Positions 205 through 1,118 of a DNA stretch of 36,812 nt are shown here, piece by piece. The position numbers and the translations under genes are program-made. The notes below the pieces were generated by a model. That model did not search any database, was not told where the DNA came from, and saw only the letters and a program-made list of their open reading frames with translations. Location: the NCBI RefSeq assembly GCF_003334315.1, contig NZ_QOWR01000048.1; one strand, written 5' to 3'. This DNA is from Escherichia coli. Its GTDB lineage: Bacteria; Pseudomonadota; Gammaproteobacteria; Enterobacterales; Enterobacteriaceae. Position 1 is the first letter of the stretch; each line of letters begins with the position of its first letter.

Positions 205-1118
205 ACGCAAGTGAAAAGCTAAATATCACGTTGATGTCGCGCACGGGTATTTTACCCGAAGCCGATTTCTATTGCCCTATTCCCTACGAGCCCTTACACA
301 TCGTCACCGATCAGGCATTAAATGCTGAGATTCAAAAAGGCGAAGAGGGCCTTTTGGATCGGGTATTTAGATTGATAGTAGAGGAAATCAAGTTTGCTGA
401 TCCAGACTGGAGTCAACGCATAGCCTTAGAGAGCCTGAATGTCGATTCCTTTGCTCAAGCCTGGTTTGCCGAGCGCAAACAACGCGACCCATTTGACTGG
501 GCAGAAAAAAATCTCCAGGAAGTCGAACGCAATAAACGAGAAAAACATACTGTTCCCTGGCGTTATGTCATTCTGCGCCTGCATGAAGCCGTACAGGAAA
601 TTGTTCCACATCTGAATGAACACGACCATAAACGGTTCAGTAAAGGCCTTGCCCGGGTTTTCATCGATAATTATGCGGCAATCCCTTCAGAGTCTATTCG
701 TCGCCTACTTGCCTTACGTGAAGCGGGAATCATTCATATTCTCGCCCTCGGTGAAGACTACAAAATGGAAATTAATGAGTCGCGCACCGTCCTGAAAACG
801 GAAGACAACAGCTACTCGTTTGACGTTTTTATCGATGCCCGCGGGCAGCGTCCGCTTAAAGTGAAAGATATTCCTTTCCATGGACTACGCGAACAATTAC
901 AGAAAACAGGGGATGAAATCCCTGATGTTGGTGAAGATTATACGTTACAGCAACCCGAAGATATTCGTGGGCGCGTAGCGTTCGGCGCGTTGCCCTGGTT
1001 AATGCACGACCAGCCTTTCGTTCAGGGACTTACGGCATGTGCAGAAATTGGTGAGGCGATGGCTCGGGCGGTCGTAAAACCTTCCTCCCGTGCACGTCGG
1101 CGTCTTTCGTTTGATTAA
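205..1118 (+). pseudogene. ydhS: ydhS (FAD/NAD(P)-binding protein) 3' fragment, 5'-truncated by IS1
   Basis: Open frame runs from the IS1 boundary to a stop at 1116-1118 (track ORF 231-1118). Position next to ydhT matches K-12 synteny. About 303 codons are retained of a K-12 protein I recall as ~534 aa, so the N-terminal part and promoter are missing. Confidence 0.8.

Follow-up and report, generated by a model that had tools for sequence, protein, structure and literature searches.

A simple IS1 insertion very probably split ydhS at the edge of an Escherichia coli contig

The ydhS fragment at the start of the 36,812-nt stretch of E. coli DNA analysed here (the window) was very probably produced by a simple insertion of IS1 at nucleotides 691/692 of ydhS, which duplicated ACGCAAGTG and split the gene, with nothing deleted by the event. 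The original prediction, according to which ydhS had lost its promoter and 5′ half to IS1, is not supported: the window stops within the element, and six out of six relatives sharing its junction keep the 5′ part of the gene. As ydhS is split in two pieces, it is a pseudogene, inactivated in the lineage of the window with or without any later rearrangement. We are dealing with an ordinary pseudogene produced by insertion, only one side of which is visible where the contig ends, and events of this kind are already known.

The features discussed below are listed in Table 1. At the left end of the window, base 204 is the end of the terminal repeat (...AAGTTGGCAGCATCACC) and base 205 is the first chromosomal base; the boundary between the two is unambiguous, since the last IS1 base is C, while intact ydhS has A at this position. 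The break lies within codon 231 of the 1605-nt ydhS. The terminal inverted repeat of the IS1 family (approximately 23 bp) is present at the end of the left element and matches that of complete copies, and the complete IS1 used for the identity in Table 1 is the 768-bp copy of strain 2017-19-1CC. The insA gene starts at base 149 on the minus strand and runs leftwards, away from the 3′ part of ydhS. A complete IS1 of 768 bp has insA followed by insB′ via a programmed frameshift; the window contains only the 5′ part of insA, as the remainder of the element is beyond its edge. In the near-identical contig L003, which shows 440 bp of IS1, insA is called with the Pfam domains Zn_ribbon_InsA/HTH_Tnp_IS1 (PF03811/PF12759). 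At the junction, there is a sole promoter-like site, a minus-strand one (197→170) directed towards insA, and we take it to be the insA promoter.

Table 1. Coordinates of the IS1 ends, the junction and the ydhS fragment in the window.
Feature	Position	Strand	Comment
Partial IS1, IRL end and first 49 insA codons	1..204	-	Ends at the window edge; 203/204 identity to complete IS1
Promoter-like site CTGCCA-16-TATGAT in IRL	170..197	-	Inward towards insA, not ydhS
IRL terminal inverted repeat GGTGATGCTGCCAACTTACTGAT	182..204	-	Direct reading; bounds complete IS1 in L001, L002, L009, L013, L015
ACGCAAGTG, right-hand copy of the 9-bp target-site duplication	205..213	+	Same 9 bp before the other IS1 end in relatives
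ydhS 3′ fragment, codons 232-534 and stop	207..1118	+	Half of an insertional pseudogene
IRR end of another partial IS1, inserted in fadK behind codon 425	36691..36812	-	Ends at the window edge

The reading of the fragment as ydhS cut by the left IS1 is borne out by its sequence. Its 303 sense codons are identical at 302 positions to residues 232-534 of the 534-residue YdhS of the K-12 type (NF007381/PRK09897, FAD-NAD(P)-binding protein), and its DNA is 100% identical to ydhS of strain CP53. The frame had been described as open from 205 to 1118; the stop at 1118 and the 303 codons stand, but bases 205-206 are the final two bases of codon 231, and the in-frame codons begin at 207, not at 205. 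On the NCBIfam profile NF007381, the fragment covers positions 232-534 with 625 bits, below the cutoff of 783 bits, compared to 1114 bits for the intact YdhS of CP53, and what the window holds is thus part of the gene and does not count as a functional YdhS family member. The window contains no full-length ydhS: neither blastn nor tblastn located the missing 691 nt or the region upstream of them anywhere else in it. The claim that the 5′ half is missing from the window is correct except for its size, as the fragment constitutes the back 57% of the gene and the missing share is 43%.

The missing part indeed holds the predicted dinucleotide-binding fold. The full-length YdhS has a sole Pfam domain, NAD_binding_9 (PF13454), at residues 5-164, with the GxGxxG motif GAGPTG at residues 8-13, and a second glycine-rich motif at residues 194-206. 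All three are upstream of the break in codon 231, and hence the fragment, unlike the K-12-type protein with its residues 1-231 and only recognised domain, is devoid of them; together with the splitting of the gene, this agrees with the prediction that ydhS is non-functional. As had been proposed, the fragment also lacks an own start codon and an own promoter. Its frame is open backwards into IS1, as far as the stop at 114-116; the first possible starts are TTG231 and ATG234, the latter being the internal Met241.

The simple insertion makes a specific prediction about the other side of the element. Given a 9-bp duplication, the reciprocal junction was predicted, before any look-up, to read ...GAT AAC GCA AGT G/GG TAA... 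(the slash marks the boundary), with a product consisting of YdhS residues 1-233, Gly and a stop, and ending in ...HRDNASG. Exactly this 234-residue protein is recorded on 13 contigs, which extend into IS1 by between a few dozen and 125 bp before they end, and the fragment of the window is found on nine contigs. Both junctions were also checked at the DNA level. The reciprocal one reads ...GATAACGCAAGTG followed by GGTAATGACTCCAAC, and the string ...GATAACGCAAGTG/GGTAATGAC... was found in 10 contigs, with six sister assemblies among them.

These six are NCBI draft assemblies (GCA_958329015.1, GCA_965251415.1, GCA_002466665.1, GCA_002462895.1, GCA_004172665.1, GCA_004172725.1), and they are all the NCBI assemblies found with the junction of the window. 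In each of them, the reciprocal junction ...ACGCAAGTG/GGTAATGAC... is at the end of a second contig, so that copies of ACGCAAGTG are present on both sides of IS1, on two contigs per assembly. The 5′ part retained there is ydhS nucleotides 1-700, including the second copy of the 9-bp target, and in the two assemblies whose flanks were fetched, its upstream genes are in the normal mdtK-ydhQ-ydhR order. One relative is particularly close: over 11,118 bp, the contig of GCA_002462895.1 and the window share 99.98% identity. The reciprocal junction with a duplicated target in six out of six relatives argues for a simple insertion and not a deletion. The 5′ half of ydhS is kept in every relative examined and, judging by them, it is most likely still just beyond IS1 in the window's own genome. 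The IS1-ydhS junction is carried by draft assemblies only; it was found, as a one-piece match, in none of 5,426 complete E. coli genomes, and it is absent from the PLSDB plasmids and the JGI metagenome contigs. An exact look-up of the 295-aa product of the fragment starting at TTG yielded no match.

Taking all this into account, we suggest the following scenario. A 768-bp IS1 would have transposed between nucleotides 691 and 692 of ydhS, copying the 9-bp target ACGCAAGTG, with insA and insB of the inserted element pointing away from the 3′ part of the gene; the string CGCGATAACGCAAGTGGGTAATGAC would be the mark of the reciprocal junction expected under such an insertion. The upstream piece would encode 234 residues, that is, residues 1-233, Gly, and a stop provided by the IS1 end GGTAA, and would retain its FAD/NAD(P)-binding part along with the native promoter while lacking the 301 C-terminal residues (234-534). 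The downstream piece would be left with 303 codons and with no promoter, ribosome-binding site or cofactor-binding motif. The 5′ part with its native upstream region would be retained 768 bp away, as the sister lineage suggests. Both ends of the window stop approximately 120-200 bp inside IS1, which points to a short-read contig probably broken at the IS1 repeats, and as the window begins 204 bp inside the element, only the 3′ fragment of ydhS is visible in it. More generally, when a gene seems "truncated by an IS" where a contig ends, this should not be taken for a deletion, as its other half may be on another contig.

An alternative is that the 5′ half and the promoter were indeed deleted or moved in the genome of the window by a later IS1-mediated event, such as an adjacent deletion, or an inversion or recombination involving the IS1 of ydhS and some other copy of the element. 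The window itself cannot show the sequence to the left of its ydhS IS1, and partners for such an event could be available, as a further direct IS1 is located 36.5 kb away in fadK, and the E. coli genomes searched have a median of approximately 10 places matching an IS1-containing query. Still, we consider a true loss unlikely, given that the relatives with the same junction all keep the 5′ half along with the matching duplication, that the window has no positive sign of rearrangement, and that all other IS1 events examined at the ydhS locus are simple insertions.

The latter are five other same-orientation events in or just upstream of ydhS, observed in complete genomes of strains 2017-19-1CC, w264, 5CRE51, 042, and FDAARGOS_944 by a search that joined same-strand pieces only. 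All five have an 8-9-bp duplication and both flanks kept. Three of them, in strains 042 (NZ_CP042934.2), FDAARGOS_944, and 5CRE51, resemble the window in the element family, the gene, the orientation, and the 8-9-bp target duplication, but differ in the insertion point, IS1 being located after nucleotides 1371, 1215, and 366, respectively, and not at 691/692. RefSeq labels the ydhS halves in these three strains as "incomplete; partial" pseudogenes of an FAD-NAD(P)-binding protein. In w264, the intergenic IS1 copy measures only 757 bp, and its annotation marks it as frameshifted. In addition, at least 11 complete E. coli genomes have IS1, in either orientation, between ydhR and an intact ydhS (e.g., L001 3437-4204, L014 1948-2704, and matches H81-H85), and such intergenic insertions could alter the expression of ydhS.

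According to reports, IS1 ends can form hybrid promoters with flanking DNA, and the original prediction allowed for an outward IS1 promoter driving the fragment. In this case, read-through or a hybrid promoter at the IS1 end would yield a protein starting at Met241, with a residual or new function. The frame open from within IS1 to the stop at 1118 and the in-frame ATG at 234 are compatible with this possibility. However, a consensus scan revealed no plus-strand sigma-70-like promoter site in positions 1-1300, and thus none directed out of IS1, the sole site at the junction pointing the other way; direct reading revealed no GGAG-like ribosome-binding site ahead of ATG234; and the fragment is missing the entire Pfam domain as well as the two glycine-rich motifs for nucleotide binding. 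Hence, an expressed fragment seems very improbable. We infer that the fragment is not expressed, and a functional product from it is unlikely.

It is similarly far-fetched that the 36.5-kb ydhS′-fadK′ segment between the direct IS1 copies acts as a unit, be it a composite-transposon-like translocatable segment, an excised circle, or a tandem amplification with its ends joined via a single IS1. Two direct IS1 ends do flank the segment, at 1-204 and 36691-36812; they have the same orientation and are complementary (IRL on the left, IRR on the right), so that the contig could close through one IS1. On the other hand, the 9-bp duplications seen in relatives differ between the two IS1 copies, being ACGCAAGTG at ydhS and GAGGCTGGC at fadK, the latter visible in strain RM14721 (NZ_CP027105.1), and such separate duplications indicate two independent simple insertions and not a composite unit. 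Further, the junction is present on no PLSDB plasmid, and the run from ydhS to fadK has the ordinary chromosomal gene order, its 24.8-kb core being approximately 100% identical to many E. coli chromosomes. A plasmid or composite-transposon origin was rejected accordingly, no foreign context being apparent, and the same identity of the core to ordinary E. coli chromosomes led us to reject a Shigella origin, raised by the IS1 load. The only Rfam matches in the window, RprA and rydB, are both at their expected places, and positions 1-1300 have none.

The fadK IS1 of RM14721 is complete (768 bp), and its site and orientation are identical to those in the window. At the same time, RM14721 is approximately 98.4% identical to the window over the 1.4-kb fadK query, compared to 100% for the fadK part in the closest strains. 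Two further complete genomes (H39, H40) have a one-piece match at the fadK site (window 36682-36690; L009 4283-5068). Sister contigs of 56-108 kb appear to be without the fadK IS1 present in the window. Either a site-specific hotspot or recombination spreading the allele could account for the shared site.

The last possibility, that the loss of ydhS was selected and not neutral, is also highly doubtful. Across different E. coli lineages, IS1 occurs at no fewer than six separate sites within ydhS or upstream of it, in both orientations. According to a rough count, approximately 19 records among the 5,426 genomes have IS1 within approximately 2.4 kb, several of them deriving from one strain, and the random expectation is approximately 20-25 records, given some 10 IS1 copies per 5-Mb genome; as the observed number fits the expected one, an IS1 hotspot or an adaptive loss of ydhS was rejected. 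YdhS is an uncharacterised FAD/NAD(P)-binding protein with one phenotype found, susceptibility to type VI secretion: the knockout of ydhS in K-12 lowers susceptibility to the type VI secretion attack by Agrobacterium and is complemented in trans (PMC7012810). A full-text literature search retrieved no paper mentioning both "ydhS" and "IS1." The insertion itself matters little, being one more IS1-split gene of unknown function in a commensal-type E. coli. In practice, the IS1/ACGCAAGTG junction at nucleotides 691/692 of ydhS marks a lineage, as at least six public draft assemblies have it in common.

Several minor observations concern the ends of the window and its neighborhood. The right IS1 end reads GATAATGCCGATGAC, whereas the other IS1 copies compared read GATAATGCCCGATGAC, which constitutes a 1-bp deletion in a run of C; it is seen in none of the 34 loci compared, and could be either a real IS1 variant or a homopolymer error. 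The deletion would put the final few codons of insB, on the minus strand, in a different frame, and due to it, the frame of the fadK′-IS1 fusion runs off the window without stopping; an exact look-up of this edge product found no match. The same end also has CTTACTGATAG in place of CTTATTGATAG.

Six matches of window positions 205-25000 fall on entries of the E. coli collection labelled as "plasmid." In PLSDB, too, there are "plasmid" records of 4.7-4.9 Mb, evidently chromosomes (H71, H72, H74), and such records are probably mislabelled replicons in public collections.

In L006 (positions 1-23; Logan run ERR10986197), the 3′ part of ydhS is joined near window position 215 to the 23-nt sequence TAGCCAGCTGCTGAGCTACCAAG. 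This join is located to the right of the IS1 junction, at a distance of approximately 10 bp. The sequence is unrelated and does not belong to IS1; its source might be a construct, a chimeric unitig, or some other mobile element. Finally, the neighboring ydhT (window 1130-1942, minus strand) encodes 270 aa in the window, L003, L035, and L037, and is called as 254 aa in L004-L007, L036, and L038. Some of the latter (L004, L036) have the IS1 junction, and the IS1-bearing lineage hence comprises no fewer than two variants, or start calls, of ydhT.
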